A stretch of DNA of 62,111 nt, counting the filler, from Hausera hauseri (taxonomy: Eukaryota): the NCBI GenBank assembly GCA_046269625.1. It is 11 parts of 11 records of this genome, joined end to end, with 100 filler letters (N's around TTAATTAATTAA, not from the genome) between each part and the next. Parts side by side here need not be neighbours in the genome. Positions count along the whole stretch, not along the records: positions 35,210 to 46,604 come from JBJURY010105542.1; 10 more parts are not named here. One strand, written 5' to 3'. The stretch's first letter is position 1, and each line of letters opens with the position of its first letter. Positions 15,795-60,200 of the stretch are shown piece by piece. Below the pieces are notes generated by a model that saw only the letters and a program-made list of their open reading frames with translations, ran no database searches and was not told the DNA's origin. The translations under genes and the position numbers were made by a program.

Positions 15795-16719
15795 TATTCA
15801 AAAATGAGTCACGAAATATTTAATTTGAATTGTATTATTCAAAGTATCCCCAGACGGTGTTACGTATACCATCAATCCGGCATCTTATGTTAACAGTAAT
15901 CATCTCAGTTATTTCAAATTCGTCGGTCGATTCGTTGCGAAAGCCATATTTGACAACAAATTACTGACGTGCTACTTTACCAGAGCATTCTACAAACATA
16001 TCCTCGGCATTCCCATTCGATACACCGATTTGGAGAAAGAAGATTATCAGTTTTTCCGCGGTCTTGAATTCCTTCTGAAAAACGACGTATCGACGATGTT
16101 CCTCGACCAGACATTTTCTATTCAGATCTCAGAATTCGGCAAAACCGAAACGAGAGAACTCGTACCGAACGGGTCCCAGATAATAGTTGTTGAAGAAAAC
16201 AAACAGGAATACGTTCGACTCGTTTGTCAGGAGAAAATGACCGGGGCCATTCGACAACAGTTGAACAGTTTTCTCGAGGGATTTTACGAGATCATTCCGA
16301 AATCTTTGATATCGATCTTCAACGAAAAAGAACTGGAACTGTTGATTTGTGGTCTTCCCGAAATCGATCTCGCCGATTTGAAGGCCAATACGGTGTACAA
16401 TAAATACACACCAGCATCACTTCAGATTCAATGGTTTTGGCAGGCACTCGAATCGTTCGACCAGGAAGATCTCGCCAGATTTATACAATTCGTTACTGGG
16501 ACGAGTAAAGTTCCGCTGGGTGGTTTTGCGAAATTGGAAGGAATGAACGGTCCAACAAAGTTCCAGATTAGTCTGGCATCAACCAGCACCAATCATTTGC
16601 CTGCCGCTCACACATGTTTCAATTCCATTGATTTGCCTCCTTATGAAAGTTTTGATAAGTTACGCAATCGGCTTCTGACAGCAGTCAGAGAATGCAGTGA
16701 AGGTTATGGAATGATTTGA
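15795..16719 (+). CDS. HUWE1: C-terminal HECT domain of a HUWE1-type E3 ubiquitin ligase (terminal exon or truncated copy)
   Basis: Frame open from 15829: [44 protein letters not shown]...[25 protein letters not shown]...[23 protein letters not shown]...ECSEGYGMI. Catalytic HTCFN is present. 15795-15830 continues the similarity in another frame. Confidence 0.9.
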
Positions 16720-25780: not shown

Positions 25781-26415
25781 TGTGGTGCCCCCCATTTNNN
25801 NNNNNNNCATGCCCCGCGGCCGGATGGTTGGACGACGTCGGGCGCCTGACATCGCTTTAATGGCATTTCAGGCCTCCAACCGTGTCGATCTCTTGCGCCA
25901 GGTTCCGTTGCCGCGCGACAGTATGAACATTCAACCTATTTTTTTCTGGATGCTTTCTCGTTAGAAGAATATTTGTGTCTCACTGACATCAACGTTAACA
26001 ATCTCACAGAGAAAGTTGCTACTCATACCGCTGAGTCAATTCTGGTCGGTTAGATGATTTTGAGTTTGTCCGATTCCGAAGACGTTTTCTCATCAAATGC
26101 CGGCGAACTCAACGTCGGGGTTACTTTGGAATCGGACAAACTCAAAATCATCTGAACGTCCACAATTGACTCAGCGGTATGAGTAGCAACTTTCTCTGTT
26201 AGATTGTTAACGTTGATGTTAGTGAGCCACAAATATTCTTCTAACGAGGAAGCATCCAGAAAAACCTGGGTTGAATGTTCATACGGTCGCGCGGCAACGG
26301 AACCCGGCTCAAGAGATCGACACGGTTTGAGGCCTGAAACGTCATTAAAGCGATTACAGGCGCCCGACGTCGTCCAATCATCCGGCCTCGGGGCGTGCAA
26401 ACGATGGGCACCACA
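25781..26415. repeat. 635-bp imperfect palindrome (arms 25781-26081 and 26124-26415, 42-nt loop)
   Basis: The arms align as reverse complements over about 290 nt at roughly 90% identity by eye; termini TGTGGTGCCC ... GGGCACCACA; a 10-N gap lies at 25798-25807. Confidence 0.95.
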
Positions 26416-31339: not shown

Positions 31340-32290
31340 CTAACTCTTTGAAAGTGCCTGTGACTGAGTGATACTGGCGAATAATTTCCTCATGATAAAA
31401 ATGTCACGAATTCCGGCCAACCACCGGATTGAGCATTTGAAATGATTTACTACCATTTCAATAACGTCGGCTCCGATTGCAATCTTGTCTGTAAGTATTT
31501 CAGCAACCATGCGGTACAAATCCGGTGGATCCATCTGATTATTGATATTGGCTTTCATAAGGCCCGTTACGTGCGTATCAAAGTTGTTCATATGCTGTCT
31601 TGGGGTGATTATTCCATATAGTAACGTGTTCCCGTGCAAGGTCATGATTGATGCCTCGATAGGTTGGAGTTGATTCCATTGGTCATAAGCCAAGTTTACG
31701 GCCACTATGACCATATCATTATCTGTTATTTTATCGAATCTTCGAAAAGGGACACTTCTATATTTAACATAGTCCGGCTCTGGAACATTGAAGCATTTTC
31801 CGTCGGGGAGGCTTGGGCGAAATTTTTCATTCTTTATTATCTCAATGGCTAAGATGATTCGGTTAGTGTCGGAGCGGATTTTAAATGTGTTTGCGTTAAG
31901 AACATTATGGTCAAAAGAGAGACCATGTTCTTAGTCCAAATTAATGAGATCTCCTTTCAAAGAGATTTTCTTATGGGAGGTTTTAACTTGCAGTTGACCA
32001 GTAAAACAATAGAGATTCATTGAATGAAAACGTTCCGGTACGATCAGTATGTCCGAAAGATAGAAGGAGGTAGCCCTTGAGATTTGCATGAGGGCAATCG
32101 AACGATTGGCCATCCTGTAGCCTTTTATGTTATTTGGGATCTGTTGTGTCTGTGGATAATTAAGACTGATTATAGTATCGTTGTGGACTATATCATATTG
32201 ATTAAATGGATTTGCGTTTATAATGTGGTCTTCGCATTGTTATACCAATGCTTTGATCGGTTAATTGTCTAAATTTGGTGGAACGTTGAC
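31340..32290 (-). pseudogene. Unknown accessory ORF of the Gypsy element (about 315 codons, a few in-frame stops)
   Basis: Track ORFs 31931-32113 and 31340-31714 are one frame when read through stops: IFVNVPPNLDN*PIKALV*QCEDHII...MANRSIALMQ...LINLD*EHGLSFDHNVL...RIILAIEIIK...DNDMVIVAVNLAY. A TTGTTTTTTATAG acceptor-like sequence precedes it. Confidence 0.6.
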
Positions 32291-32440
32291 GAATATACTA
32301 TAAAAAACAAAGTCAATGTGATTCTATGCACGGCATTTAAATTCAACACAACGGTAATTATACACATTACTAAGGTAATCGTTGTGGTTAACATGGGGTG
32401 AATCTTTCGACTAAAGGTAACCAGGTGTTGTTTGGCTATC

Positions 32441-33238
32441 TTATTTCTTAGGGTTGCGTTGACCGCAATCCCTATATCTAATTGTCAGCTGAGATTGTCT
32501 GTATCTACCGGATTCAGTTAGATCACGCATGTTAATTCTAACCCAGCTTCTTCTGCTACGTTTACACCGCGAGTGCACGACTCTAGTTACTATTATTACT
32601 ATTATTATCAATACTATGGGCACTAATAATCCGATTAGTATCATCTCCAGACGAGAATGTTTATATGCGGCTCGGGAGGGTTTGCTAGTTACTTTATTAC
32701 TAATTGTATACTTTTTGTAATTTGATTCCCTCTTATGACTCTTTTTTGTAATTGCCGATATTATATTGGTGGAGGTTATTTTATCGTTATTATCTAATAA
32801 TTGTAGGATCACCGTATATTTTGTGTCAGGGTTTAAGGCTGCGCATGGTACTATCAAGTCGTCGGGTGTTATTACTCCCTTCGCTACTATTGCACCTTCT
32901 TTCGTACAAGTGAATCTGATTTTCATGAAATCTAGGTTTGGCTTAACAGACACGATTAAAGCCGTAGGGGCTGCTATAAGGGTTACGTTATCCCATATAG
33001 AGCTCTTTTGACGATAATAAGACGCGTAAGGTCTGATCAGAATAGTTATTTCTTTTTTGTTGGTCCAGAGATGGACCGCTGGTGTCGTAATCTTTTTCAG
33101 CAAATCATCGTATTCTTTTTTATTATTAAATCGTATAAACATGGTTGGGCCCTTGCGTTCTAATGGATGTCTGAATTTACCATTTCTTCTTCGAAATAGA
33201 AGGTAATAAACGTGGTATATTTTTCCCCGTGTAACCAT
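32441..33238 (-). CDS. Type I membrane protein-like ORF in the env position: FN3-like domain, transmembrane helix, basic tail
   Basis: AALNPDTKYTVILQLL resembles the FN3 LxPxTxYxV signature; TM segment MILIGLLVPIVLIIIVIIV followed by TRVVHSRCKRSRR. Probably extends 5' through a frameshifted stretch to about 33880. Confidence 0.6.
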   Translation of the reverse strand: MVTRGKIYHVYYLLFRRRNGKFRHPLERKGPTMFIRFNNKKEYDDLLKKITTPAVHLWTNKKEITILIRPYASYYRQKSSIWDNVTLIAAPTALIVSVKPNLDFMKIRFTCTKEGAIVAKGVITPDDLIVPCAALNPDTKYTVILQLLDNNDKITSTNIISAITKKSHKRESNYKKYTISNKVTSKPSRAAYKHSRLEMILIGLLVPIVLIIIVIIVTRVVHSRCKRSRRSWVRINMRDLTESGRYRQSQLTIRYRDCGQRNPKK

Positions 33239-33899
33239 ACAGCAAATTCTTTGTTGTTTATCTTTAAGTCTGCAAATCCTAATTTCTGCACCTATATTTT
33301 ATATTCACTTGATTGCTAACCTTCGATCGTTTTCTAATTGTATCAACGTTATAATTTCAATGCAACTTCTCTCACTCTTAAATCCCATTGACCGCACAAT
33401 CAGTTGGTTGAGTATTATTTCATCTATTAATGTCTCATTCATTTGTTGTCTCGTATGGATCACTACTGATCTATAAAATTTTGTTTTCCGACTTTTGTAA
33501 TAATTTCCCTATCTCTCTATAAGTGTAAGGTATATGTAATGAACGCCTGAACCTTGTACCCTACACTGTGTTTGATTGGTATCTGAATGGAATAAACAGT
33601 TATATTGTCGCTCGTTGGGGTCTCTTATTATCATACCATGGTATTATTTGTATCCCCATTATGTATGTTGGGGGCATTTGTTCTGGCATATTCCAGTTTA
33701 TCACTTTTTGACCTTTTTCTGAATATGTTACTCTATACTGTAGGTTTTTCATTAATAGGTCTTCTGTTATGGCTATCACGTGCCGTATTTTTGTGCCTTC
33801 AATCTCTTGGTTCGTCATTTGTTCAATCACTTTGGGCAATAACAAGATTGCCCTTAATAATAGGTACTGCATTAACCAATGGAATCTGTGAGTTGGGTT

Positions 33900-35109
33900 T
33901 ACCTTGGCTGTTTTTTCATTAATACTTAGTACTATCGCTTTTTCACGTTTTCTTGACTCACTTTGCTTGGCGGCTGGCTTACATTTATTAATGTGAACCT
34001 TCAAGGATTTATCATTCTTCTTTAGACAAATATTCGTTAGATCCACTTTTTTACTTCGTAAGGCCCTTTATATGGCCTATCTAACTTGGATGTTTTGCCC
34101 TTTTTACTTGCCGGTGAGTGCAACATTACTTGGTCGCCTATTTTAATTTTTGGCTGTTTGGTTCTCTGGTCATAGTATCTTTTATATTTCAGTTTATAGT
34201 CTTTCTGGCTATCATCAATCGTTTTGTATGCTAACTGGAGGCGTTTCTGCATTAACTGTTTATAATCTTCCATTCCATTAAGTGTGAGACTGGCTTTACA
34301 TTAAAGTCTAGATCAATTGTTAGTCTTGCATCCCATAAATACATTAAGTAGAAGGGGGTTTCTTTAGTAGCTTCATGGACTGATGTCCGATTTACGAAAA
34401 CTCATGCATTGATATATTCGTCCCAATCGTCTTGCCCAATGTTTACTACCGTTTGTAATTTCCCCTTTAAATCTTCAATATATCTCTCGACCATTCCATT
34501 ATTTTCTGGGTGGCCCGGCGTGGATCGTAGTTTTAATATCTTTAAAATATCATATATGGACTGCATTATCGTTCCGGTTAAATTTAATGCTTGATCTGTC
34601 AAGAGGATTCTCGGGGCTCCATAACTAAATACTATATATTTCGCAAATTTTTTGGCGATTGTGTCTGCCTTCATATCAGCCATTGGCAAGGCCACAACCC
34701 ATCTAGTAAAGTAGTCGATAAAGACTAGGATATATCGATTTTCATTGCGGGTTAATGGTAGTGGCCGCGTTATGTCCATTGCAGTAAACTCAAATGGTGC
34801 TGGGGGTTTATCCCATACTTTAAGAGGTGCTTTGTATTTCGTTCCCGTGTTCTTCCGGGTAGCACATAACTTGCAGCTATTGCTCCGTTCCTGCACATCT
34901 TTCGTTATGCTTGGCCAAAAGTATTTCCGTTTTAACTTATTAAGCGTTTTGTTTTCTAATTGGTGTCCACCAAGTAATCCGTCATGGCATTGAGTTAATA
35001 GAACTGCTTTGTTTTTCTGGGGAATGACCAGGGCAGATCCGTTTTGATGAACGAAGTATAAGAATCTTTCTTTTTCTTCATACGCTTCACTGAATCGAGC
35101 GAAATGGCG
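33900..35109 (-). pseudogene. pol: Ty3/Gypsy integrase, disrupted
   Basis: CHDGLLGGH...KYFWPSI...CKLC zinc finger; FTAMDITRPLP, FIDYFTRW, LLTDQALNL, GHPENNGMVER core; SKLDRPYKGPYEV GPY/F module. Confidence 0.92.
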
Positions 35110-35519
35110 NNNNNNNNNNNNNNNNNNNNNNNNNNNNNNNNNNNNNNNNNNNNTTAATTAATTAANNNNNNNNNNNNNNNNNNNNNNNNNNNNNNNNNNN
35201 NNNNNNNNNTTGTTTCAGTGTTTTTGAAATTTGTACTTTCTGATTTTCATTTGATGCTTTTTTGGAATTTTGTTCTGTGGCTTTTTAACTTGTTTTTTGA
35301 ACTGTTTCGGTTTGGATAGTTATTTTTTAATGCGGTTTTAAAATTTGCGTAGCTGGATTCCTGCTGTTCAAGTTCCTTTTCGACTTTTAGGCTTTGGGAT
35401 TTTTGCTGATTGAAGAAATGATTATTTCTCTCACAGGTTTCAAATTCAAAAAGGTCAGTTTGGGATTTGGATTGATTTTTTGACTTTTTAATTTAGATTT
35501 TTTGGTAATTAAAAGATCC

Positions 35520-36717
35520 TAACATAAGTTAATGAGAGAAGTACAGTTAAGATTAAACGAGATACGCAAAAATGTACGAAGAGCGTTCACGGTATTGTTA
35601 AATTATTGCCTTCCAGACGTCACAGTCGACTCAGGGTGGGATGCGTGTTTGGAAGATGTGTACTGCCAAAACCCAAAAACACCCATCCAACTTCAATAAA
35701 AGGATATACTTCCAACAGACCGACGATTTGATATGGAGATGCTCTTAGATCCTGCACGGACCGAGAGAATTAATTGAGCAGATTAACGTCAACATGACGG
35801 AGAGCAAACTAAGACAATGGATCCCTACACTAACCAAACTATCGAGCGAAAATACCGCTTATATCTTAGTACCCAGACTATTGCTAAAGAAATACGCTGA
35901 TTTCTTTAAAGCTAAACCCAAAACGAAGATTAAGGTGAAGATATCAGCTGAATGGATGGAAGAGAAAGAAATTGAATGCACAACGATAACATCCGTTAGA
36001 GAAATAAAGCAATGGATAGTACAAAACGGTGGGAGAGACGAAATAAAGTATCGGTTATATTTCCGAGATATGATACTGGACGAACCTAAGCTACTGACAG
36101 ATGTTGGAATTATTCCAGAGGAATCAAATCGAATAGTGGCTATAATTACCATCGAACAGACAAAAGACGAGGCTGTAAGAAAAGTGAGAGATGAACATTG
36201 CGTAGGACGCATTTTGGGAATCCGAGACCCTCTCATGTATTTTGACTACCTCCAAAGTGAGGAAGATAAGAAATAATACGATAAGAATCTAGTACCGATT
36301 AGCGAAGCAATACCAAGTGCGCCGAAACAGAAACGACCAGTTGAAAGGCCGAGGAAAATAAGATACGATATTGACCAAAGTGCAGCTTTGATACGAGAAT
36401 TAAAGCAATTATCCATGCCCGCGAATAACTCCGATAGCGAAGAATTAAACGAGTTACTAAGATACATAATTAAAATAGTGAACTATTCAGGACCAAGAAA
36501 TGAGATGGTAGACATAAAAGAGAAAGCAATATATGATGCTGCGAGGATTATGAGAACATTTCAATTCAAAATGAACAAAAGCAACTTACCTGATAAAGTG
36601 TTAATCGAGAAAGTTATGGTAGAGAATACTAAGGAAGAATTGAGGAAAGTAATATTGTACTTGGCAATCAAAACAAATCCCCTAAAGAAAATGAATTCAA
36701 TAAAACTATTGGATTGA
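35520..36717 (+). pseudogene. Accessory region of a large Gypsy element with a ubiquitin-like domain (about 35920-36160)
   Basis: KIKVKISAEWMEEKEIECTTITSVREIKQWIVQNGGRDEIKYRLYFRDMILDEPKLLTDVGIIPEESNRIVAII follows the beta-grasp pattern of ubiquitin (T-V-x-x-I-K...RLIF-G-x-x-L-D...L-x-D-Y-x-I). A homologous copy lies at 45924-46604. Confidence 0.7.
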
Positions 36718-36812
36718 TCAGAAAGGCTGCTAGAAAAATACCTAGAGAGATAAATTGGTCCTAGCTATTTGATGACGAAGATGGAAACAGGCCAACAACT
36801 AGAATTAAAGAT

Positions 36813-38795
36813 GTGGTAAGGAATTTAATACCAACTAACTCAGCGCGAGACAGTAAATCAAATTGGATGTTTAAACTAATAACTCTTATGGTGTTAGTAA
36901 AACAACTTGGTTCAATCACGGTATATGACTGTGATAAGTTTAAAATAGGTCAAAAATATTCTGTGATGGATCTGGAGTTGTGTGAGGATGCCAGACCCCA
37001 CAAGTTAGTAACCATTGAGACAAAGTATTTTTTGTACCAACAACGCAAACTAATCGCAATAGATGGAATAGAGTGCATGTTACGACGATCACAAAGCATT
37101 TTCCACTATGGAAATGTGCACGGACATTCATCAATCGTAAAGCCAACGATGCCACGAATACGTATGAATTTAGATCGACAACAATGCAAACAAGCCAAGA
37201 AAACAGGAAGATTGAGATTGGATGGGATGGCGTTAGAATCCCAGCCAGAAAGGATAATTCTGGTGTACAAAGTAGCAATTGGGAAATTTGACATTCACAC
37301 TGGATACTGTAAAGAAGGTGAATACGATACAGGAAAAGGAAGAAAATCAGGAATAATAGTAGTTGATTTCTATGAGACAAAGATGAGGAACCAAAAGATG
37401 ATGTTTTGTAGCGTTACAAAAACATATACAGAAAATCAGAAGTGTCATATCCACGACGGTGCATGTACTTTCCGAAATTCGATAGTTATTTGGACTCCGC
37501 CACCTATGAATGATTATAACTGTATTAAAATAAAAGAGGTAAATTTGAACAGAACCACGGAAAAAAAATATGTAGACAAAACCGACAATAATGCCAGGTC
37601 AAGGAAGGACGTCGCTGAGGAGTCTACACCCACGATTCTGATCTCCAAAGATCACGGATTAAAGTTCATTAAAAGGCAAATGCTTTCTAGATGTAATGTA
37701 GTAATGTGCTGACACAAATTATGGAGCCTTCTTCGTAGCAGAAGTAGCAATAACTACTTTTGCTTTGGAACACAAGATGTAAGAATAGAAGATTACTTGA
37801 AGAATAGAGATGATTACTTCTATTATAAAGGGCAAATTGGACTAGCAGACTTATATCGCAAGATGATTGCAAACGACTGTAAATTGGACATAAAAATTAT
37901 GAGAACCAAACTAGCCTTAATCTATACAAATCCAGAACTGGCGTCACCTGTAATTCCGATGAATGTAGGCATTTTCGGAAGAGTTACCAGAGAAGTTCTG
38001 TTGACCTACAAATGCAAAAAACGAAATGTATCCCTGAAAGTGGAGGAAAAACGTTGTATCCAAGAATTGCTTGTTATATATCAGAAAGTATCTCCATTGG
38101 CTATGTCACTTACAAGAGTTTTGCTAGAAAACTCGACACAGCCAACAATTTTGAAAGAATGCAAAGCAGGTTTAGGGGAACCTATGTTTAAGGGAAGTGA
38201 GACAGATTGGGTAAGCGTGCCAAATGGGGGAATAATAGCTACGCCTTGTAAATTAACTGGAACAAATTTGTTAAAAGGAATAACAGACGATAAGTTTGCC
38301 GACACTGCAAGTAAAGGGATTTACAGACCCAAGGAAATTGAAGCCTTCGGACATTTCTTAGCCTTCCCTCAACAGCGTTCGCATGAGTTAAATAGAGTCC
38401 TGTCAACGGTGATGGATGTCACCCGCTATCAAACAAAATGGGAATTTCTACTTGGCGTTAATCATTATCAAAGAGTCACTACAGAAATACTACATAAAAT
38501 CTGCGGAAGATTTTTAATTTTTGGACAAGCTGCATCAGGATTTTTCGCTATCTACTTTTCGGTACAACTCGTAAAGGCTGTAATTCAATCTATCATAAAT
38601 GACTATGAAATATTTACACTAACCGGATTTTCATGCGAAATTTTTATCGCGATCATACCGCCGTTTGGAAAATTTTTGAAGGCCTACGAAGAAAACAGAT
38701 GGAAAAGCGATGTGGAGAGACACGTTGGTTATTATAATCGGAAACGAAAGAGAAAACTTATATTTTTTATAGGACAAAGAATGACAAAAATTTGA
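36813..38795 (+). pseudogene. env: Envelope glycoprotein of the chuvirus / herpes gB-like (class III fusogen) type, interrupted by in-frame stops at about 37710-37790
   Basis: Signal-like MFKLITLMVLVKQLG, then ITVYDC...YSVMDLELC, IECMLRRSQSIFHYG...HSSIV, QQCKQAKKTG, GYCKEGEY, LYRKMIANDCKLD, EVLLTYKC, CIQELLV, ASKGIYRPKEIEAFGHFLAFP, RFLIFGQAASGFFAIYFSVQLVKAVIQSII. These motifs are colinear with chuvirus-type glycoproteins. Both track ORFs are in the same frame. Confidence 0.85.
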
Positions 38796-39329
38796 AAAAA
38801 GCTATTTGGATGATGATGAGCCTAAGGCAGGAGACGCGATCTCCAAGATAAGCAATCGTAAGACGCTTAGGCCACCTCTGCCAATGCTGCCCCCTTCCGC
38901 ACCGCAATACGAAGACAGCGATAAGAGATTTATTATCTCATATAGTTCGAAATCTACCAAAAGCCTTTGAGTAACGAAGATCCCTATGAAGGGACAAAAC
39001 AATACCGCGTGTTGCGGAAAATGTGCCAAATTAAAGAAAAATCTGATTTATGCCGCTAATCGGTGGATGATCACAGAATGACATAGTCCCCAAGGATTTC
39101 AAGGAATATAGAAACTAAATCATTAATTTGAGATAATCCACGAATGCAATCCTTCCATAACCAAAACAACCGAGAACTGCTAATGCAATACACCGAAACG
39201 AGACAACGAAAACAGTGTAAATAATGGATTATATCCCATTGAGGAATTAAGACAAGTAGCCGAGAATAAAGCACCAGTAATAAGTATAAATGGGTACAAG
39301 ATATCCGTCGTTAAACAACCTAAGATAAA

Positions 39330-41590
39330 AGAAGGTAAACCTTTCGACAAAATTAGTATTGACGATTGGGAAGTATACGCACTAGTAGATAGCGGGTCAG
39401 AGAAATAATTTATAAAGGAGGGATCGATACCAAAAACACTACGGAATCAACCACGTTTACCACAAGCAACCGACCCCGGAAGTATAGAAGCTTTCTGACA
39501 AGAATCACGACCAAAATTTAAGTGGAATCCTAATCTTAAAATAATGGGACAAACATTCCAACATGAATTTTCTATAATGGAACACCTAAACGACGACGTA
39601 GTATTAGGGTGTGATATATTAATACGTCTACCGAACGTCGCGATAGATTTGAATACCTCAAAGTTAGTCGAGCTCGGAACAATGAAAGGAACTAAGATTA
39701 ATAAGGAAAAAGAACCCAAAGAAGTATGGATTCCGGTCGAAAGGAACATTCCGCCTAGAAAGAAATTGTTTATATTCGTGCAAATCTGTCAAGAAAATGA
39801 TTTGCCAATATACTTTGATCCGGAAGAAACGCTAAATCCAAGTATAATATTAAGCAATGTAATAACTCGAGTAGCATCAGGTCGAATACCCGTAAGGATA
39901 GTGAATAATGCTCAAATTTCAGTAAGATTATATGATAACACTACTCTAGGGCATACCTACAAAGTATTAGCAACAACGGTTGAAGAGAAACCGTTTAAAT
40001 ACGCTGAATTTCCATCACACGTCGATACGAAGTTTTCACCAGAAGCTTATTGCCAGTTTTACGAATTATTATGTCGATATAAATCAATTATTGCAAAGGA
40101 CGAAGAAGGCATAGGCCGAGCAAAGACGTTAAAATTAACTATACCCCTTAAGAAAAAGCCTGGTTCCAACGATGAAATCAATCTCGTGGAACAGAAAATG
40201 CCAAAATTGTCTCCGCCGTCACATTCCCTAAGATCGGAGATAACCAAAGAGGTAGAACGTATGTTAAAGGCCGATACAATCCGACCAAGTTTCAAATCAT
40301 GGTATTCACCTATTCTTATGGTTAAAAAGAAGGGTACCACGAAACATCGATTTTGTATCCATTATAGAGCATTAAATACTCTCATGATAAAAGATTCTTT
40401 TCCCTTACCATCTGTGAAAGAGGCTCTATATAGATTATCAGGTGCAAAATGGTTTACCACTTTGGACTTACAATCCGGATACTCGCAAGTAAAGATTGAG
40501 GATGAAAATCGCTATAAAACCGCATTTAAAACTTATGACGGCGTATACAAGTTCAACGTTATGCCGTTTGGAATTACTACTGGACCAGCCATATTTACCA
40601 AGATGATGAATAAAATGTTAATGGGAATTGAACATGCATTTGCGTACTTAGATGACGTAATGATTGCATCAAAAGACGAAAAGGAGCATCTGAAGGACAT
40701 TGAAGACACTATTATAAGATTAGAACAAGCCGAGTTTAAACTAAACCCAAAAAAATGCAAATGGATCTAAAACGCCGTGCCCTATCTTGGCTATATAGTT
40801 GAAGAAGGAGGATCCAAGCCTGACAAATCATTACTGAATAAAATTTCAGATAGTATGAAACCTCGGAACCAAAAGGAATTGGGACACTGGTTAGGTATAT
40901 GTGGATATTTGCTACCTAAGTACTGGATTACTCAAAAAATTAATGCACCATTATACCGATTATTGAAAAAGGGAACGAATTGAAGATGGACCGATGTTGA
41001 ACAAAAGATGTTCGACGAAATGAAGAAGATACTAACTAGCGAACCGGTACTTAGATATCCTGACCTAACCTTACCGTTTATTATTAAAACAGACGCAAGT
41101 AAAGAAGGTATTGGATATAAATTGATACAAAAACACGAAGACGAAGAACTAGAATACCAAATCGCTTATTGAGTACGCTCCCTGAAGAAAGCAGAGAATA
41201 ACTATTCAGTGACAGAACTAGAAACATTAGCAGTAAAAGAAGTCTTAAAGCATTTTAACGTTTACGTATATGGACAGAAGATAATAATAGTTACCGATCA
41301 TAAGAGAGTTACAACTTTAAAGAGACGAGCAAACAACCCTGCGTGTAGGTTGAATAGATGGATTGAAAGGATCTCGAGATATAATATTGAATTCCAATAT
41401 AAACCTGGTGTGAAGCATGTTGATGCGGATGCGTTGTCACGACTAAAAACGAAAACAAGTGCTATTGTGACGATGAAAAAAACCAGATGGACGAGTTAGT
41501 AGATCAACAACGAACCTTAGCGTTGAACAAATTCTATTGGCCTAGTATATATATTGATGTGAAAAATTGGGTAAGCGCTTGCGAAGTGCC
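39330..41590 (+). pseudogene. pol: Ty3/Gypsy pol: aspartic protease, RT, RNase H and a remnant of the integrase zinc finger
   Basis: ALVDSGS (39379-39399), VVLGCDIL, WYSPILMVKKK...RFCIHYRALN, LDLQSGYSQV, MPFGITTGPAIF, YLDDVMI, IKTDAS, ELETLAV, YKPGVKHVDADALSR, then KFYWPSIYIDVKNWVSACEV before an abrupt join to LTR sequence. Confidence 0.95.
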
Positions 41591-41723
41591 GTAATTCTAA
41601 TAAGAGTGTTAGAATTTATCTGCTCTTATAATTGCACTTCAAACTGAAATTTGTTTATTGTTATAGTTGGGTGCTGGATAGAGCTCACCTTTAACTACTA
41701 ACATTTGGCGACCCTGGCATGAC
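41590..41723 (+). promoter_or_regulatory. Truncated LTR 3' end (ends ...CTAACA at 41703) and PBS, probably tRNA-Arg
   Basis: ACTAACA-TT-TGGCGACCCTGGCATGAC (PBS 41706-41723), followed by gag. Confidence 0.7.
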
Positions 41724-41887: not shown

Positions 41888-44800
41888 ATGGATAGGCATA
41901 AGTCAGACGATAGCTTAAGCGTAATTCTAAACGATAAAGAAAATATTAATCTACGTGAAACGCGCAACAAAGTTTATAGACATGATAAAACGTTGAGTAG
42001 ACGTACCTTATCGGAAACGAATTTAGCTAATATTGAACCTATTGATTTAAACGTTGTTGAACAGCCTATAGGATTTAAATTTCCTTATAAAAGAATTAGA
42101 ATTCTTAAGTTAATTAAGCAAAATTTAATAAACGTCAAAACATGGTTGAGAATCAAGCAGTATCGCAGAAGCTGGACATTTTTACATTTGACTCGCTGAA
42201 TCTGCCGGCTTACAAGGGAGACACGGACGGACTTAATAAGTTCTTTTGAACCTATAAGTTACACGCAGAAGGTGCTGGACTCATATATGACGTAATGATT
42301 AAACGTTTGTCACTATATTTGAAAAATTTGGGCGCTGATGCTTACAGTGAACTCACTGATGATGAGAAGAAATCCTAATCCTCCGTGGCAGGAGCCTTAA
42401 ACCGAAAATTATTGCCGGCAGTAACTCTGCAGCAAAAACTCGTGGCCTTCCAGAAAAGCGTGCAATAGAAAGGTGAATCGACAACCCACGTAATGATGAT
42501 GATGCAGTTAATAAAGGGTACGTGGTCTAGAGACATAGTGAAACAGTTGATTTTAGCACGACCGGAAAATTTTGACAAAACCTTGCAGTTAGCCCAGGAC
42601 TTAGAAATGGCATTGGACAGATATGCTAGAAACATCGATAGAAATGCTAGAAACAATGATCGAAATGATCGCAATTATAGAAATTGGAATGATAATCATG
42701 GTAGAAATGATAGGCGATTTAATAAAAATAATGGAAATAGAAATCAGAACGGCAATAATGATTATAGAAGTAATCAATATGGTAACCGGAATTTTGACAA
42801 TGACCGAAAAAGCGCATCTAGCAAACCAAACAATAGCACTGATAGAAGTTCAGGTGGTCGCAGAAATTTTAAAAATTGAAACCGTTACAATGATAATCGA
42901 AGTTATGGTAATCGTCAGAATGGGGATACGATACTAGTTCCGTTGAATCAGAATTATAACAGAAATCCGAGCAGATCAAAATCTCCAATAAATGAGGATG
43001 GTCGACAAAGGGTTGGTAGAAATGGAAACCTAATTTGTTACACCTTTGGACAAGAAGGACACGTAGCAAGGTCTTGTCCAAATCCATGAAGCGTTTTGTT
43101 TGTTGAGCCTAACAAAACTTATGCAATTGTGAATGAAAATCTAGAAGCAATTTATTGTATCCGTAAGGACACGGGTATGATTATCGATATACAAGATTTA
43201 CGACGTTTCTTGAAGGCCCAGCCTGATACTAATGATCCCAAAGTCTTAATGGCCAGGAATGAGTATGAGCACAAATTACGATTACTAGAAGAATATCATG
43301 GCCTTCGTGACTCAGAAACTGAATATGAACGTTCTATCGCCCCACAAAGGCTTACCGATATGGGACGGAAAAAGAATGTCCCTGCGTCTAATAAAGAGAG
43401 AGAGAAACCGGAAAAATCTCAAACTTCGAATGAAGTAGATTTAGATGCAGAACCGGAATATATTGTAGAAAAAGTAATCAAAACTATAGAAGTCGACGAA
43501 GAAAAAGAATCTATAAAATCGTTAATATTTAAAATTACAAAGAATACAGGCCTCAGCCCATCGTTACAGTGAAAACGTAAAGATCGTTCACGATCTCCGA
43601 TGACTAAAGGAAAGTCACACAGAGCCAATGAAACTGAAGTAGCTTTAGGAAGCTACTTATAGTTCATATTAAATACCCCGGAAATGGGGTTAGTCGCTCC
43701 TGTTAGGATAGAACAGTTAACAAAATCGGTAAATAAAATTAATGAGATATGTCCACTACCTACTAGTGAAGAAGAGATAGAATAAAGTGAGAGGTTCGAT
43801 CAGAAACAGTGGAAAATCAGACATTCATGGAAAAATGCTAATGAAGTAAAGAAAATGAGAATTAATCGCCTCGACACAGGAATATTACAACAGATTCTAG
43901 AGAAACTTAAAGAAATAAGCGAAGAAGTAGACATTTCTGGAAAAAGCAGCAATTTGTAGAAAGATTATATAAGAAGATGAAAATATGTAGTAAAGGAAAA
44001 CTAAGCGAAGCTATAAACCTGGAGCAACCTAAGGAAGTGTCCCCAGAAATGTTAGGAAAATGGAAATACGAATTAGAAACGTAGATAAAAAATGGCGTTA
44101 AGTCTCCAGAGGCGTGGAACAAACATACAGAGAATGTCGAAGTAAAAATAAATAAAGTCCAAACATTATTAACTACATTAGAAGTCAATTTGAAACTAAA
44201 GAGGGTAACACGTAACCTGGAACGCGTCATGAATAAAATTAGATTTGGAATGATTCAGCAACTCAAGGAAAAACCGGAAAAAGAACGAAGCGAAATTGAT
44301 CTGAAAATATTGTTCACAAACTCGCTAGATATCCCACCCTTAATGGAGATGATAAAAATCGCTTCCACCGCATCAAAATAATATAAAAGTCTGGAAAACC
44401 GTATTAAGATAGAAAAGGAATATAGGTCGCAAATATACAGCTTGGGAAATAGAATTATGTGTATGAATAATAAGGAAACACAGAACGTAATTAAAGCTTG
44501 TATCGTTGAACTCGATGAGTATAAAGATGAGTTTCACTATGCCAACCAGATTATTGGCTTTATTAAAGGTCCGGATGATGAATTGGATGACGCTTACAAA
44601 ACACTAGATAAAGCAATACTGGCAAAACCGATAATCGCTAATCAGCTAAAGGAGTGGTCCCGACTAATAATGAGACTGAGTGAATTAGTAGAGAGCCGTA
44701 TAAAAGAATTTCTTGAAAGTGAACCTACAGTACAGAAGCAATTAGAAGAAAATACAAAAAAACTAGATACAATGAGAGCGGAAATAGACATCAGAACTCA

Positions 44801-46604
44801 ATTTGATGCATTATGCCAATTAAAATTTATGAAAACCAAACAAGAAATGAAGATACTGGAGAACATATACAAAATGATCGAAGAAACGAACTTTACAGAA
44901 AAGTTGAACATGATCTGTAACTTCCATCCGAGATTAAGGAATGTTTGCTTAGAAGGAATCCAACATTTGACAGCTAAACCTATCGAACAAATCACAATTC
45001 GGGATCTTGAAATCTTGGACTTTTATCCGGAACATCGATCAGCTATAAAAGAGGCAATAGAATTCCTACACAAACCCTAAGAGTGGGTGATAGGGACAGA
45101 TCAAAGATGTCATACTAAACTGACAAAAATAAAAAATGACTACCACCTCAGCTTTGAAGTAGTCAAGTTTGTAAATTGGTTGCTCGATGCTATAGATCCA
45201 GACTCAAAACTTATTAATGAGATGTATAAATTAGCACTACTAATAGTGGAAACGGCAGAAATTAGTGATGAGAAAATAAGACAAGTGATGGCTTAGATAC
45301 GATGAGTCGAAGAAACTTGTATTAAAACCAAATAGAGAGCGATAAGATTAGACGAACTAGTTAAAGAACTCGAAATTTATATAGCTAAGTATGCCCTTAC
45401 AGACTTAGAAAAAGCCAATAAGTCACAATTTGTGCAAATGTGCAAAGAGACGTAGTCTCTGAATTAATTAATTATAAAGAGAAGAAATTGATCCAGGCCG
45501 AGCAATTATGTCAGCTGTTAACATTATTGCAGCAAATGTTCGGCAGTGGACGTTGCTTTCGTACGACACAAATGGATAAAATGCAACGTAAATTACGCGA
45601 ATTAAGAGGATCAGCACGGAATTCGGAAGTGGCTTAGCTAGTGGACAGGTTAACAGTTGATTACAGACTGTCAGATAGCGAAAACGAACTAGAATGGGAT
45701 GCGTACTTAAACGCAATGATTTCTGAAAATTCGAAAACCCCCACATGTTTGTACGAGACGAAGACTTGTCCACAAGATAGGAGATTCAGTGTGGAAATGC
45801 TTCTGGATTCAGAGAAAACTGAAAAGGACTTAATTAAATTAATTAATGTAAATCTTACTTAAAATCAATTAAGGCAGCTAGTTTCTACTCTAACTAAATT
45901 ATCTAGCGAAGGTACAATCTATAGTGCCGTACCGAAACTTTTTAAGGACCAAACCCGAAGAGACAGTTAAAGTAAAAATATCGTTGGACCCGATGGACAA
46001 GAAAGCGCAAGAGTTTACTACGCGCTCTGTCGTAAGAGACGTGGTACAGTGGCTAATGAGTAACGGTTGCGCAAGTGAATTGGACTATAAACTTTACTTT
46101 AGAGGTAGAATATTAGACGAACTGGAAGAATTAATAGACGTCGGAATTATGCGAGGTGAAACAAATCGAATAGTAGTAACGGTCGCTATGGAGGAGACAA
46201 AAGAAGAAGCCACAAGGAGGGCTAAAACAGATCAGTGTGTAGGACAAATCGTGGGAGTTCGACATGTAGCAATGTACATTGAGTACTTGCAAACGGACGG
46301 AGAAAAACAGTATGATAAGAATCTAGTGTCATCTAGCGAGAACGTACCAGTTATAGAAAAACAGAAGCGTCCTGTTGGTAGACTGCGAAAGGCACGAGAA
46401 GAGACTGATTTTAACGGGGATTTAATTAGGGAGTTGACGCAATTGTTCATACCAACTTTTAGTACAGAAAACGAAGAGCTGAATGAACTTATGAAAAACT
46501 TGATACGCATAGTAAACCATTCTAGTCTCTGTGGCGATGTATTAGATAAAAAAGAGAAATCTGTATACAATTCAGCCAAAACAATGAGAAATTTCCGATG
46601 CAAA
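41888..46604 (+). pseudogene. gag: Decayed gag plus a long accessory polyprotein region (N/R-rich linker, CCHC knuckle, predicted helical/coiled-coil region, ubiquitin-like module) of a large Gypsy element
   Basis: LPAYKGDTDGLNKFF, KRLSLYLKNLGADAYSEL, ARPENFDKTLQLAQDLE; ICYTFGQEGHVARSCP at about 43035-43080; E/K/L-rich ORFs 43096-45640; Ubl-like VKVKISLD...YKLYFRGRILDELEELIDVGIMRGETNRIVV. No pol within 4.7 kb of the gag start. Confidence 0.8.
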
Positions 46605-53030: not shown

Positions 53031-56000
53031 AATCAAGCATTTCAAAGAATAGAGTTAAGCCTTTTAGAATATAGAATAAAGCATTCAAAGAACAGAATCA
53101 AGAACTTCAAAATTATAGAATCAAGCATTTCAAGGAATAGAATCAAGCGTTTCAATGAATGTAATCAAGCATTGCAAAGAATAGAGTCAACCGCTTTAAA
53201 AAATAGAATCAGGGCTTTCAAAGAACAGAATCAAGAACTTTAAAATCTTAGGATCAAGAATTTCAAAGAATAGAATCAAGCCTCTCAAAGTGTAGAATCA
53301 AGCATTTCAAAAAATAGAATCATGCGCTTTAAAATATAAAATGAAGCGTTCCAAACAATAGAATGAAATATTTTAAAGTATAGAGTCAAACATTTCGAAT
53401 AAATAATTCAAGCATTTCAAAGAATAGAATCAAGTATTTCAAAGAATAGAATCAAGCGTTTCAAAGAATAGAATCAAGCTTTCAAAAGAAAAGAATGAAG
53501 TATTTGAAAGAATAGAGTCAAGCATTTCAAAGAAGTGAATTAAGCATTTCAAAGAATTGAATCGAGCATTTCGTAGTATAGAATCAAGAGTTTCAAAGAA
53601 TAGAATCAAGAGTTTCAGTGAATCGAATCTAGCGTTTCAAACTATAGAATAAAGTATTTCAAAGAATAGAGTCAAGCGTTTTACAAAATAGAATCAAGGC
53701 TTTCAAACAAGAGAATCAAGAACTTCAAAATTATAGAATAAAGCCTTTCAAAGAATAGAATTAAGCGTTTCGAAGCATGGAAACAAGCATTTTAAAAAAT
53801 CCATTCTATCGTTTCAAAGAATAGAATAAAGGCTTACAAAGAGCAGAATCCGTAGTATGAACAAATAGAATCAAGCGCCTCAAAGAATAGAATCAAGACT
53901 TTCAAAGAATTGCATGTAGCGTTTCAAACAATAGAATAAAGCATTTCAAAGATTAGAATCAAGCGTTTTAAAAAATAGAATCAAGCCTTTCAAAGAATAG
54001 AATCAAGCGCTTGAAAGTATAGAATCAAGCATTTCAAAAAATAGAATCAAACATTTCGAATAAATGATTCAAGCAATTCAAAGAAAAGAATCAAGGGTTG
54101 GGAAGAATTGAATCAAGTTTTTGAAAGAATAAAATCAAGAATTTCAAAGAATAGAATAAAGCATTTCAAAAAATAGAAACCAGCATTTCAAGGAAGTGAA
54201 ACAGGCGATTCAAAGTTTTATATCAAGTGTTTCAATGTATAGATTAAAGCATTTCAAAGAATAAAAACAATCGTTTCAAAGAAGAGAATCAAGGGTTTCA
54301 AATAATTGAATCAAGTTTTTTAAAGAATAGAATCAAGCAGTTCAAAGAATACAAGAAGCGCTTATAAGAATAGAATCAAGTATAGCAAGGAATAGATTGA
54401 AGCATTTCAAATAATAGAATCAAGCATTTCAAAGATTAGAAACAAGGGTACCAACGAATAGAATCATGCATTTTAAAGAAGAGAATCAAGCACTTCAAAG
54501 AATAGAAACAAGCGCAGCAAAGAATAGAATCAAGCATTTTTAAGAATAGAATCAAGCATTTCAAAAAATCGAATCAAACATTTCAAAAAGTAATATCAAG
54601 CGTTTCAAAGAATAGAATCAAGCATTTCGAAGAATAGAATTTATCGTTTCAAAGAATGGAATCAAGCGTTTCAAAGAATAGAAAAAAGTGTTTCAAAGTA
54701 TAGAATCAAGCATTTCAAAAAGTAGAATGAAGCTTTTCAAACAATAGAATTAAGCATTTCAAAGAATAGAATAAAGCGTTTCAAAGTATAGAATCAAGCA
54801 TTTCGAATAATTGAACCAAAGTTTCAAAAAATTGAATAAAGTGTATCAAATAATGGAGTCAAGCATTTCGAAGAGTAGAAACAAGGTTTTCAAAGAATAG
54901 AATCAAGCATTTCAAAGAAGAGAAAGAAGCAATTCAAAGTATTATAACAAGCGTTTCAATGTATAGAATCAAGCATTTCAAAGAGTAGGAAGAAGAGTTT
55001 GAAAGAATAGAATCAAGCATTTCGAAGAAGAGAATAAAGCATTTCGAATATATGGATCAAGCATTTCAAGGAATAGAATCAAGCATTTCAAGAAATGGAA
55101 ACAAACTTTTCAATGGATAGAATCAAGGATTCCAAATAAATGAATCAAGCGTTTTAAAGTATATACAATCAAGGGTTTCGAAAATAAAATCAAATATTGA
55201 AGAACAGAAACAAGCGTTTCAAAGAATAGAATCAAGTGTTTCAGAGAATGGAATCAAGCATTTCAAAGAATAGTATCAAGGTTTTCAAAGAATAGAATCA
55301 AGCGTTTCAAAGAATAGAATCAGGCATTTCAAAGAGTAGAATGAAGCATTTCAAAAAATACAACAAGCTTTTATAAGAATACATTTAAGCATTGCAAAGA
55401 ATAGATTCAAGCACTTCGAACAATAGAATCAAGCATTTCAAATAGTAGAAACAAGGGTATCAAGGAATAAAATCAAGCATTATGAAAAACGGAATAAGGC
55501 ATTTCGAATAAATGAATCAAGCATTTTAAAGTATATATAATCGAGCGTTTCAAGGAATAGAATCAAGCATTTCAAAGAGCAGAAACAAGCGTTTCAAAGA
55601 ATAGAATCAAGAATTTGAAATAAATGAATCAAGCGTTTTAAAGTTTATATGATCAAACGTTTCAAAAATAGAATAAAGCATTTCAAAGAAGAAATTCAAG
55701 ATTTTCAATTGATAGAATGAAGGATTTCAAATAAAGAAATGTAACGATTCAAAGTATATATAATCAGGAGTTTCAAAGAATATAATCAAGCATTTCAAAG
55801 ATCAGAAAGAAGCGTTTCAAAGAATGGAATCTACCGTTTTAAAGAATGGAATCAAGTGTTTCAAAGAATAGAATCAAACGTTTCAATTAATTGAATAAAG
55901 TATTTCAAAGAATAGAATCAAGCATTTTAAAGAATAGATTCAACCATTTCAAATAAAAGAATCAAGCATTTCGAAGAAGAGTCTAATGCACTTGGAATAA

Positions 56001-57112
56001 TTGGATAAGCGTTTCAAAGAATAGAATCAAGAATTTTATGGAATGGAAACAAGCGTTTCAATGGGTAGAATCAAGGATTTCAAATAAATGAATCAAGCGT
56101 TTTAAAGTATATATAATTAAGCGTTTCAAAAATACAAAAAAGCATTTTAGAGCTCAGAAAGTAGCCTATTGAAGTACATAATCAAGCATTTCAATGTATA
56201 GAATCAAGCATTTCAATGAATAAAACCAAACGTTTCAAAGAATACAATCAAGCGTTTCAAAGAATAGTATCAAGCATTACAAAGAATAGAATAAAACATT
56301 TCGTGTAAATGGATCAAGCCTTTCAAAGAATAGAATCAACATTTCGAAGAATAGAAGAAATTTGCTCAAAGAATAGAATGAAGCATTTGAAAGAATAGAA
56401 TAAAGCGTTTTAAAAAATAGAACGAAGGCACTCAAAGCATATAATCAGGGGTTTCAAAGAATAAAATCAAGCATTCGAAAGAATAAAATCAAGCGTTTCA
56501 AATAATAGATTCAAGGGCTTCAAAGAATTGAACCAATTGTTTGAAAGAATAGAATGAATCATTTCAATGAACAGAAGCAAGCGTTTCAAAGACTGGAATC
56601 AAGCATTTCGACGAATGGAATCAAGCATTTCAAATAAATGTATCAAACTTATCAAGGAATACAGTCAGGCATTTCAAAGAATAGAATCAAGCATTTCAAA
56701 AAAAAGAAACAAGAGTTTCAAAGAACAGAATCAAGCTTTTAAAGGAACAGACTCAAGCACTTCAAAAACTGAATCAAGTGTTTCAAAGAATAGAATCAAG
56801 TATTTCAAAGAATAGAAAGAAACGTTTCCAAGAGCAGAATGAAGCATTTCAAAGAAGGGAATCAAGCATTTCATCGAACATAAACAAGCGATTCAAAGAA
56901 TATAATGAAACGTTTAAAATTATTGAATCAAGTGTTTCAAAGAATTGTATCAAGTGTTTCAAAGTATAGAATCAAGTATTTCAAAGAATAGAATGAAGCA
57001 TTTCAAAGATTAGAAAGAAGCGTTTCAAATAATAGAATCAAGCATTTCAAAGAATAGAGTTAAGCCTTTTAGAATATAGAATAAAGCATTCAAAGAACAG
57101 AATCAAGAACTT
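53031..57112 (+). repeat. 22-bp satellite array, consensus GAATAGAATCAAGCATTTCAAA, filling the whole contig
   Basis: About 185 diverged tandem monomers. The first 77 nt (53031-53107) are identical to the last 77 nt (57036-57112). Confidence 0.97.
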
Positions 57113-57212: not shown

Positions 57213-60200
57213 TAACTTGGCGTCGACTTCTGTCTGATTTCTGAAACTGACCACTATGCATCCTAATGCCATCAACAACCGATTTTGGTCACATTCCTTT
57301 CATAGTCGTGTCCGTGCTTTATTTAAACCTCCTTTCGGTTTATATTTCTGTAATAATCTCGTAATTTGTGATGAGAAGTTTCTAGCAGTTTCTGTTATGG
57401 GCTGTAATGGAACTGTAGTAATTATTGTTATCTTCTTGAGTTAATTTGGATTAGCTTTCTTGATTAATTGTTCTAGTAGTTCATGAGTTGTTAATCTTAC
57501 CTTCGGTATATCTGTCTCATTTTGATCCGATGTTCTTGTAGCAGGATTCCATTCTTGTTCATTTTCATCATCACTAATAGTGAATTGTTGGAAGTTATTA
57601 TATAATATATCTTCTAACATTTTCTATTGTTCCCTACGTTTTCGCGGCAAAGATCTTTTTTTCTGTGCCTTTTTGGATTTTCCTCTTTGGGGTTTTTTTT
57701 GTCATCGCTTATTGGTTTAAAATCACATTTGCGTGGTTTTTCTCCCTTTTTCTTAGTACCAAATTCCATAATAATCTGATGAATCTTTCCGGTAAGGAGT
57801 CCATAATCTACAACATAGTCATTATCAACGGTTAATAAACATCAGTTTTTGCTATTATATTAGTTTCTAAATCTAATTCATCTAATGCTTTCCTTCGAAG
57901 ATCTGTGAATTTAGTGAACATTCCTTCCGTTACTTTGATTAATTGTTCCCGCTTATTGGTTTTAATTTCTTTGATTATAATATATGGTTGTTTTCGTCTG
58001 TGTTTTTGTCTTAGGTCTCTTCTAAGAGTTATAAGTAACTTTCTTGCGGCAAAAATGCAGAATACGTCATCCTTTGTTAGTGGCAGGAGTAATAATGCAC
58101 AATCTATTCGATTAGTTAATTGTAGTGATTCATATTGTCGTAAAGCATTCCACACTTCATTAGGTGCTAAATCAGCCATTTGTAATTTAGCTTTAATTAT
58201 TTCAGTTACTGATTCTAGAGGTTTGTCGTATACTATAGAACCTGGTGGAATGTTCACCTCCGTAATATCTTTTGGATTTTTGATTGGTGATAGTGTAACC
58301 TCAGGATACTGCATGTCATTCGTTGTAGGTATGAGTTCGTCGTTTTCTAAAATGTCAAACACTTCGTCTTCATCTACCACTTGTGGTTCCCTTTTGGATA
58401 TACTTGGTTGTATTGAATTCCAAATATTTTCGAGTAATGCCGGTCGTTGGAGTGGAACCTTGGATTGAGGGAGTGGTGTAACTAATCTGTCATTATAAGG
58501 TTCTATCAACTCTCCAGTTGGTCTTGTTCTGATGAGTTCATGTGAATACTGATCGGAGTGTATATCGAGATGTCTCTGAGCAACTGGTTCTATTACTGGA
58601 GTTGCTCTTGCTTCATCGGTTTTTTCAAGTTTTCATATTTCTGGAAAGGCTATTCTTTATGTTTTCTGGCTTTCTATTATCCATGGTATATTATATTCTA
58701 CTAAAACTGTTTTTAAGCATTCATCTAGATATCTTTGCGCCATAATTTCTGAGTTATGACCATGGTATAGGTCTAAACATTTGTAGGTTCTGTTGGTTTT
58801 TTTCCATATCGTAGATGGAAGTTAGATTTCTTGGGTTTATCTTCAACTTATTCAGTAGTTCTGGCAATTGGCGTCCGGTGATAATTTTTCCTGGTAAATA
58901 TTTATTCATGAATTCACTCACCGATTCTTGTCGTTGGGGGTTGAATCCTCTACTATATTCGGTGTACTATGTAGTATCTGGTATGTTTGGATACACATGA
59001 ATATTAAGAATTGTTTTCGCTTCTAAATTTTTGGCCGTAACTTGAGTTAGTCCTTTCTGGTCTCCTTTGGCTATGCATCTGCCTGTAGGTATTATTTCTC
59101 CGTTCTGTGTTACAGGTTCATCCACCATTAATACGGGTGTTTCCTTAAGCAATTGTATTAAGTATATCGGGCAGTTATCCAAAGGTTAAATCTGGCAATC
59201 TCCTTTGTAGGCATAATTAAGAAGTATCTTAATTTCTTTGGAATCGATCACCGTGTTATTGTTGATTTGTAACCCAGCTTCTGCCTGATTAGTAATTGTA
59301 GCACATGGCGGGTCGTTTATTTTAATCTGGATATCGATATTCTTTAGATAGACTTTATCAATACCTTCCATACAAATTGCTCCTTGTTTGGCAATATCTG
59401 CAAACTCCAATCTGTTAGATTTCTTGTCATTGAATATTTTATCCCAATTTTGAACTATATCTATATCCATACGCTGTGGTGTTGCTTCTGGAATCATAGT
59501 AGTGTTACATTTTATCTCATGTTGTGGATGTCTATCATCTTTAAATAAGGGTCTGCTTGGAAAAATATAATATGGAGATCCCTGGCGGTTAAGTTTAATT
59601 TTGAATTCTTGTCGTAGGTTGATTAATCGCTGTGATAATATGCCTTCTCTTTTCCATTGGCAATTTGGTAAGTTGAAGTTCTGATCTGTACTAAACGTAT
59701 CAAAGATATCTGTTTCCTTTAACTGTATCTGCTTAAATAACCATGGTAAATCTATTCTAACAATAAGTTTTCCACAGTGTAGCTGTCTAAGGTTTTCGGA
59801 GCATTTCTCTTTTTCTAGGTATACGTTTTCTAACTCAACTGTCAAATCACATTCGATGTTCTATATTCTTACTCAATTGATTTCTGGTTCCTGTTCGTCT
59901 TCGATAGTTTTTTTCTACAGCTACAAATGTTAAAAGTCTTTCTCTATTTGATTATTATTATAGTCTCTGGGTGATTGATTATAGCTTTCTCTTTCTGCAA
60001 TGTTGCTTCTCTGCAATGCATAATTGCCTTGCCGATTAGGGCTTTGACTTCTCAAAGGGTCTCTGCAAGGTGAGTTGCTACGATTTGGTACATCTGGCCT
60101 TACTAATAATCGTGTCGTAGCTACTGCTGCGATCTGTGTTTGATTAGTCCATACAGGTGTTTCATCTATCCGCGTTGCCATTCATCGGGAATGTTCCATC

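Follow-up and report, generated by a model that had tools for sequence, protein, structure and literature searches.

The window, a stretch of 62,111 nucleotides of an AT-rich animal genome in which 11 contigs are spaced by N's, carries on contig 8 (35210-46604; 11.4 kb) the remains of two related retroelements. The first of these, copy A, presents on the same strand of one contig a ubiquitin-like (Ubl) module, a glycoprotein, a linker, a protease, a reverse transcriptase (RT) and an RNase H, in the very order given by a preliminary description made from the sequence (Table 1). The DSG of the protease, the RT and the RNase H listed there are all present, and to these features is now added an H2C2 fragment of integrase, which completes the Gypsy pol order of PR-RT-RNase H-IN. 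Both the Pfam domains and their order support the earlier view of a Ty3/Gypsy pol with env upstream of the protease. We consider it quite probable that copy A as a whole (35520-41594) is a decayed Ty3/Gypsy retrotransposon with an env, its gB-type fusogen being placed after the accessory domains and ahead of protease-RT-RNase H-integrase, that it is likely a Burro-like element with a flatworm host, and that it likely descended from one giant gag-accessory-env-pol frame.

Table 1. Features of the two retroelement copies on contig 8, with positions along the window
Feature	Position	Strand	Evidence and remarks
Copy A accessory-region tail, decayed	35520..35790	+	tblastx to copy B ~45650-45940, 42-59% identity, frame change between pieces
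Copy A Ubl-like + helical module	35749..36717	+	stop at 36274; Pfam ubiquitin E 0.089; 47% identity to copy B module
Copy A predicted gB-type (class III) envelope glycoprotein	36765..38795	+	PF24664 E 2.5e-41; stop at 37710
Copy A decayed linker between env and protease, frame changes present	38796..39330	+	three-frame translation
Copy A aspartic protease with DSG at 39388 and two stops	39331..39690	+	RVP E 0.08; tblastn colinear with P0034, P0181
Copy A protease-RT interval, at the position of the Burro dUTPase-like domain	39691..40209	+	Pfam: no match
Copy A reverse transcriptase, YLDD at 40645	40210..40980	+	RVT_1 E 5e-30; 46% identity to P0032
Copy A Gypsy-type RNase H containing stops	40984..41496	+	PF17919 E 1e-17, PF17917 E 9e-18
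Copy A integrase H2C2 zinc finger fragment, integrase cut off	41511..41594	+	PF17921 E 3.7e-6 over 41511-41591
Copy B putative LTR-like stretch, 97 bases, TGTTAG...CTAACA	41607..41703	+	sequence; partner LTR absent from contig
Copy B PBS-like 12-mer	41706..41717	+	2 bases past CA end; reverse complement = PBS of two rotifer errantiviruses
Copy B gag, CCHC knuckle near 43035, decayed	42142..43086	+	zf-CCHC E 0.0015; tblastn P0049 gag E 1e-7
Copy B long accessory region, charged, likely coiled-coil, stops and frame changes	43087..45890	+	continuous low-stop frames
Copy B Ubl-like + helical module, truncated by contig end	45894..46604	+	47% identity to copy A module, E 3e-74

Two decayed copies on one contig

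Copy A is dead, its frames being broken by stops and by frame changes that lie upstream of env, downstream of env and inside the linker. Stops number one in the 676 codons of env, one in the 322 of the Ubl module and six in the 771 of pol (39187-41499). The lower count in env than in pol could mean that the host has retained the glycoprotein as a domesticated fusogen, the remainder being left to decay; however, the one stop of env sits in the middle of the ectodomain, the Ubl module is equally open and the family exists in many diverged copies, and such domestication appears extremely improbable. No copy of the very same family with intact frames was seen. The earlier statement that the features follow one another without a non-coding gap holds, as a low-stop frame (at most four stops) is found in each 300-base bin from 35510 to 41500. 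Copy A itself has lost both ends and lacks LTRs and a PBS, and no LTR, PBS or repeat was found at the borders of env on contig 8. A single-sequence search of 39691-40050 for a dUTPase gave no PDB match below E 1.3. While the Ubl module and pol share a frame, env is read in a different one; the frame changes are scattered, occur throughout copy B as well, and look like general decay.

Copy B starts at about 41.6 kb, directly after the point at which the integrase of copy A is cut. By its sequence it is a related element, lying in or next to the copy A integrase and giving a view of the 5' half, and the join may represent either an insertion of B into A or a deletion that brought the two together. 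The modules shared by the copies are 47% identical over 226 aa, with identities of 0.66, 0.72 and 0.40 at the three codon positions, third positions being the most diverged. The accessory sequence of copy B amounts to some 900 codons and matches no Pfam family at cut-off (43087-45890), and a long direct repeat that could serve as the second LTR is absent from contig 8. The 14-base PBS pattern has one exact site in the whole window, and its PBS-like 12-mer corresponds to two rotifer errantivirus entries in supplement 1 of Chary and Hayashi (2026, PMC13524379).

A further view of the family came from contigs of run X1. This run, which is possibly the source sample itself or another from the same species, is not independent of the window. 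The contigs cover 30 of 30 bins, with 13,915 pieces aligned, 11,268 of them less than 95% alike; since pieces cover every bin and most fall below this level, the element family is repetitive. Of the 31 length differences between X1 and contig 8, 12 are listed, and several of these lie close to frame changes in copy A or copy B; they fit the view that the frame changes may be decay private to the present copy. No X1 contig among those listed spans the entire element stretch.

As for the host, a TTC16-like gene, carried by contig 2, shares 44-49% identity with sequences from many marine invertebrates and groups with Macrostomum (SH-aLRT 99; quick tree, 42 rows). A flatworm host is likely on the evidence of this one gene, which lies on another contig than the element, and its quick tree.

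The label given to the module in front of env deserves caution. The preliminary description called it Ubl, and a Pfam ubiquitin match does fall on the copy A module, although at a weak score; the copy B module has Atlas leads of 0.81-0.83, with Rad60-SLD among them, and its single-sequence model (pLDDT 36) was too poor for a fold search. The ubiquitin-like label of both modules should therefore be read as a weak one. Helical, Bcl-2-like stretches that end in a BH2-like motif lie directly upstream of env in four relatives (P0031, P0033, P0043 and P0049), and a 4-row profile of these (BH1-BH2) placed Bcl-xL first in the PDB (E 7e-4). The profile matched neither copy A nor copy B, but elsewhere in the window it matches contig 11, a close homologue of P0043. 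The Bcl-2-like part of P0049, searched against the Atlas, gave no usable match.

The envelope glycoprotein and its relatives

Residues 35-640 of the copy A env match PF24664 (Monjiviricetes_fusion) in Pfam. A signal-like stretch near the start of the glycoprotein had been proposed, and a hydrophobic stretch of this kind does open with the Met at 36867, an in-frame ATG. Further hydrophobic stretches lie at residues 589-611 and 616-634, and env has a C-terminal membrane anchor; a furin motif was not found in the copy A env. Compared singly with the PDB, the env sequence found no match. A profile of 95 aligned sequences, built from the window ectodomain, its stop written as X, together with 94 of the 150 relatives listed, gave herpesvirus gB in 33 of 33 matches, the best at E 0.002. 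The AlphaFold (AF2) model of env has a mean pLDDT of 84 and a long central helix, and with Foldseek it retrieves gB of HSV, VZV and other viruses at E 1e-12 (TM about 0.4) and chuvirus-like glycoproteins at E 1e-28 (TM 0.65), the latter being the closest fold among viral models. The structure check proposed for the gB-like fusogen has thus been run, and family, profile and model all come out gB- or chuvirus-like; on the predicted structure, env is of the class III, gB-type fusogen fold.

A scan of viral contigs with env found no relative. A word-indexed protein search found nothing within the near-length range, because the relatives of env are long polyproteins. These emerged from a full HMMER search, which returned 282 relatives, 150 of them listed; the best 17 comprise four short fragments and 13 proteins of 748-3243 aa, and a domain scan covered these 13 together with six other long matches and three cluster members. 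The closest relatives, at E 1e-80 to 1e-27, are polyproteins of retroelements. Among the 13 long top relatives, a Pfam protease lies downstream of env in 10, or in 11 with the protease motif of P0037, RT follows env and protease in five (P0032, P0034, P0039, P0044 and P0047), and a CCHC knuckle precedes env in five. Env lies behind integrase in none of the 13, a placement that the preliminary description had named as refuting its own reading. Among weaker relatives, P0064 has DUF5641 (BEL/Pao type) and P0075 an RT-like stretch upstream of env.

The open frames of these relatives bear directly on how the element may have been expressed. P0032 and P0047 run unbroken in one ORF from CCHC through env, PR, RT and RH to IN; P0181 is a single ORF of 4,844 aa with env, proteases, ankyrin, RT, RH and IN; and P0049 holds gag, CCHC, a weak ubiquitin match (E 0.03), a weak Bcl-2 match and env within one ORF. 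Identity of env to the open-frame relatives is 22-30%, and by tblastn the relatives found with env are colinear with both env and pol of the contig. The single polyprotein claimed earlier is thus upheld by the unbroken ORFs of relatives but not by copy A itself, broken as it is. Similarly, the gag-accessory-env-pol layout finds its ancestry in the relatives, but gag was not found within 35520-41590 and is present only in the adjoining copy B. Several relatives have repeated protease domains, and P0032, P0034, P0044 and P0181 carry a signal-like and anchor pair 3' of integrase; comparison of the post-integrase ORFs of contig 7 with the C-terminal extensions of the relatives yielded nothing significant.

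It could be argued that env, in this same order, forms an ORF of its own, translated from a spliced or internally started message, with gag-accessory and pol joined by splicing or programmed frameshifting. Such an arrangement would avoid the 1:1:1 stoichiometry that a single ORF imposes, and it is in keeping with the frame of env, which differs from that common to Ubl and pol, and with the ATG that opens the signal-like stretch. However, relatives pass through both junctions in one ORF, the frame changes are scattered and occur also inside the linker and in copy B, and other copies in X1 differ in length near them. A separately expressed env is rather unlikely, and descent from a single frame remains the preferred reading.

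Whether env belongs with this pol at all can be judged from the RT. The RT matches are Gypsy-type pol proteins, the named ones being, for example, Tf2-6 and opus polyproteins, and the relatives found with env are the six best of 37 RT BLAST matches. The window RT groups with them and with the env-less P0014 (SH-aLRT 91) in a quick tree in which the window branch is long, the group is not starred, and Copia, BEL and retrovirus references are not included. An RT search among proteins of 742-2115 aa gave distant Gypsy pols only, and 69 metagenome loci related by RT (34-54% identity; generic Gypsy contigs, many of them short) all lacked env. In the RT-based locus scan, profile matches were confined to pol columns.

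A glycoprotein that arrived separately, as a chuvirus-derived EVE or a BEL/Pao piece inserted in a Gypsy element, or one joined to it by misassembly of the contig, would accord with the patchwork nature of the contig, where the integrase of copy A is cut at copy B, with a fold nearest to chuvirus-like glycoproteins among viral models, and with the want of a listed X1 contig over the whole stretch. Yet the closest env relatives are retroelement polyproteins of the same order, which also hold the closest RTs, and env is bordered by neither LTR, PBS nor repeat. As the RTs nearest to that of the window belong to relatives found with env, nesting or misassembly of env is unlikely; this concordance largely refutes the idea, which we regard as very improbable. 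Env and pol appear from these comparisons to travel together, and a chance insertion of env is unlikely.

Relation to known env-bearing elements

The layout had been presented as a departure from the known position of env, but it is already in print (PMC6431247; PMC13524379, as far as these texts describe it). The planarian Burro/GYPSM1 element (Jurka, 2007; Grohme, 2018), as told by Arkhipova and Yushenova (2019, PMC6431247), encodes Gag, Ubi/SUMO-like, BCL2-like, Env and PR-RT-RH-IN in one ORF of 4,873 aa, with env in frame between gag and pol and the Ubi2/SUMO-like and BCL2-like domains in front. In the same account, the ORFs range over 4,873-5,140 aa and the elements over 25-30 kb, MATH, BIR and ankyrin cargo occurs also, a dUTPase-like domain lies between PR and RT, the domain calls required HHpred, and Env is likened to that of gypsy. 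Burro is de-repressed in planarians under smedwi-2 RNAi (PMC8532177). The present element resembles Burro in its CCHC Gag, long accessory region, a module whose Ubi/SUMO-like label is weak, and env with a mononegavirus-like fusion protein before PR-RT-RH-IN, and the present family does so in its giant single ORF (the relative P0181), its many decayed copies and its likely flatworm host. It differs in that no BCL2-like domain was detected in copy A or B and single-sequence searches of contig 8 showed no MATH, BIR, ankyrin or dUTPase-like domain, in that the present copy is broken, and in its length, estimated from copies A and B at about 3,500 codons to the integrase end. Env is here class III (gB-like) by its model, whereas that account draws the comparison with gypsy Env; Burro was compared by its published description. 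As a BCL2-like domain was sought and not found, the element is filed as Burro-like and not as Burro proper.

Elements of the GAG-ENV-POL order with a gB-type ENV are described from Nematoda, Bryozoa and Platyhelminthes by Chary and Hayashi (2026, PMC13524379), with six Schmidtea elements of 1 to 215 copies among them and intact elements catalogued. Copy A shares with these errantiviruses a Ty3/Gypsy pol, a gB-type ENV and ENV before POL; their ORFs are intact, whereas copy A is a decayed copy with stops and frame changes. The gag-env-pol order is seen across the two copies, copy A showing env-pol and copy B showing gag upstream of the module that both carry. In supplement 2 of that paper, the ENV rows of the six Schmidtea elements share motifs with the top relatives when compared by eye. 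Four short env motifs had no match in this supplement, whose rows as displayed cover the first ectodomain domains only. The main text of PMC13524379 does not mention polyprotein, ubiquitin or Burro, so that it treats neither the accessory cargo nor a link to Burro. Judged by its architecture, the present element belongs to the GAG-ENV-POL gB-type Gypsy elements, and its predicted working is like that of a Burro element.

For nematodes, PMC13524379 cites Sacco (2022) for elements with a flipped env-pol order and an RNA-virus-type glycoprotein, and for BEL/Pao elements with a chuvirus glycoprotein it cites Dezordi (2020), with env after pol. The BEL/Pao elements share with copy A the glycoprotein family PF24664; there env follows pol (compare P0064), whereas here a Gypsy-type pol follows env. 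A BEL/Pao identity of copy A was rejected on its Gypsy-type RNase H and H2C2, the absence of any BEL-associated Pfam family, and env before protease. The NERV element of Sacco and colleagues, in J Gen Virol in 2022, reportedly has one continuous gag-env-pro-pol ORF. Compared by description only, it resembles the present element in its env before pol and its RNA-virus-type glycoprotein, its hosts being nematodes.

A possible working of the polyprotein and its meaning

How such a polyprotein might function can be outlined by analogy with the flavivirus-type polyproteins, from which the whole scheme is drawn. Gag and the accessory domains would remain cytosolic, the internal hydrophobic stretch would thread the ectodomain into the ER co-translationally, and signal peptidase would free the ectodomain; the membrane anchor would then bring the chain back to the cytosol, where the element's own aspartic protease would cut PR, RT-RH and IN from the tail of Env. 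A trimeric class III Env, again by analogy, could let particles fuse with other cells and spread from cell to cell.

It is tempting to go further and to regard Burro, the gB-type errantiviruses of Schmidtea and the present elements as one flatworm-wide infectious enveloped lineage, of which the window would provide a host outside planarians. Its hallmark would be one membrane-threaded polyprotein comprising Gag with swappable Ubl/Bcl-2-like cargo, a class III fusogen, repeated proteases, Pol and a second signal-plus-anchor protein after integrase, an arrangement that would leave Pol on the cytosolic side, looped between two membrane modules in the manner of flaviviruses. We put this forward tentatively, as a possible but doubtful unification.

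Overall, what is new here is a further family, likely from a further flatworm host, for an env-before-pol layout already published, together with a direct structural call of class III and gB-like for a Burro-like Env. The finding also connects the literatures on Burro and on gB-type errantiviruses, which in the available text of PMC6431247 and PMC13524379 do not cite each other. The intact planarian Burro copies would be better material for probing the production of Gag, Env and Pol from a single ORF and the movement of such elements from cell to cell.

Contig 7 and proteins among the relatives

The integrase of contig 7 shares 39-43% identity with those of P0032, P0034 and P0181, polyprotein relatives of the decayed Burro-like Ty3/Gypsy element on contig 8. 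More open reading frames follow it, and one of these, ending in a hydrophobic anchor, may be the counterpart of the membrane protein that the relatives carry after integrase. A search for significant matches between the post-integrase frames of contig 7 and the C-terminal extensions of the relatives found none.

P0181 is a single frame of 4,844 aa with ankyrin repeats and C2H2 fingers, up to seven protease-like stretches, and three signal-like or anchor segments in addition to those of its env. P0032 is a complete env-pol polyprotein of a retroelement; its database entry (HBK71150.1) places it, as a hypothetical protein, in a genome bin of Flavobacteriaceae, where it is likely animal contamination. 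Separately, the 1,000-aa P0123 carries immunoglobulin domains N-terminal to a PF24664 fusion glycoprotein, a join that may be a gene-model fusion.

Repeats and neighbouring genes

Contig 8 starts with a repeat of very high copy (summed depth by contigs of sequencing run X1, 128,610, against ~400-21,000 elsewhere), and contig 10 is a diverged tandem array throughout. The self-complementary stretch of contig 6 directly follows a 10-N gap and is possibly an assembly artefact. On contig 2 gag adjoins a TTC16-like frame, and on contig 4 ~1.1 kb separates a HECT domain from an integrase fragment; the HECT domain may be a retrocopy or cargo captured by the element.

Features by contig
Feature	Contig	Coordinates	Strand	Remarks
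TTC16-like ORF	2	5385-7577		731 codons, uninterrupted
gag	2	8841-9668		54% identity to gag of P0049
Gypsy integrase fragment	4	14469-14735		
HECT ubiquitin-ligase domain	4	15829-16716		uninterrupted; E 3e-89
Self-complementary stretch	6	25808-26397		~590 bases, 87% identity
Integrase and ORFs following it	7	31340-35109	-	
Anchor-ending ORF	7	32441-33298		
High-copy repeat	8	35210-35589		
Tandem array	10	53031-57112		entire contig
Accessory/Ubl-like/Bcl-2-like stretch	11	57213-59902	-	
gag-like ORF	11	near 60520-61131		upstream of preceding stretch

Contig 11 and the contig-8 lineage

The minus-strand stretch of contig 11 is 51-79% identical to the relative P0043 across the accessory, Ubl-like and first part of the Bcl-2-like module. 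Judged by sequence, it represents another family of the same lineage as the contig-8 element.
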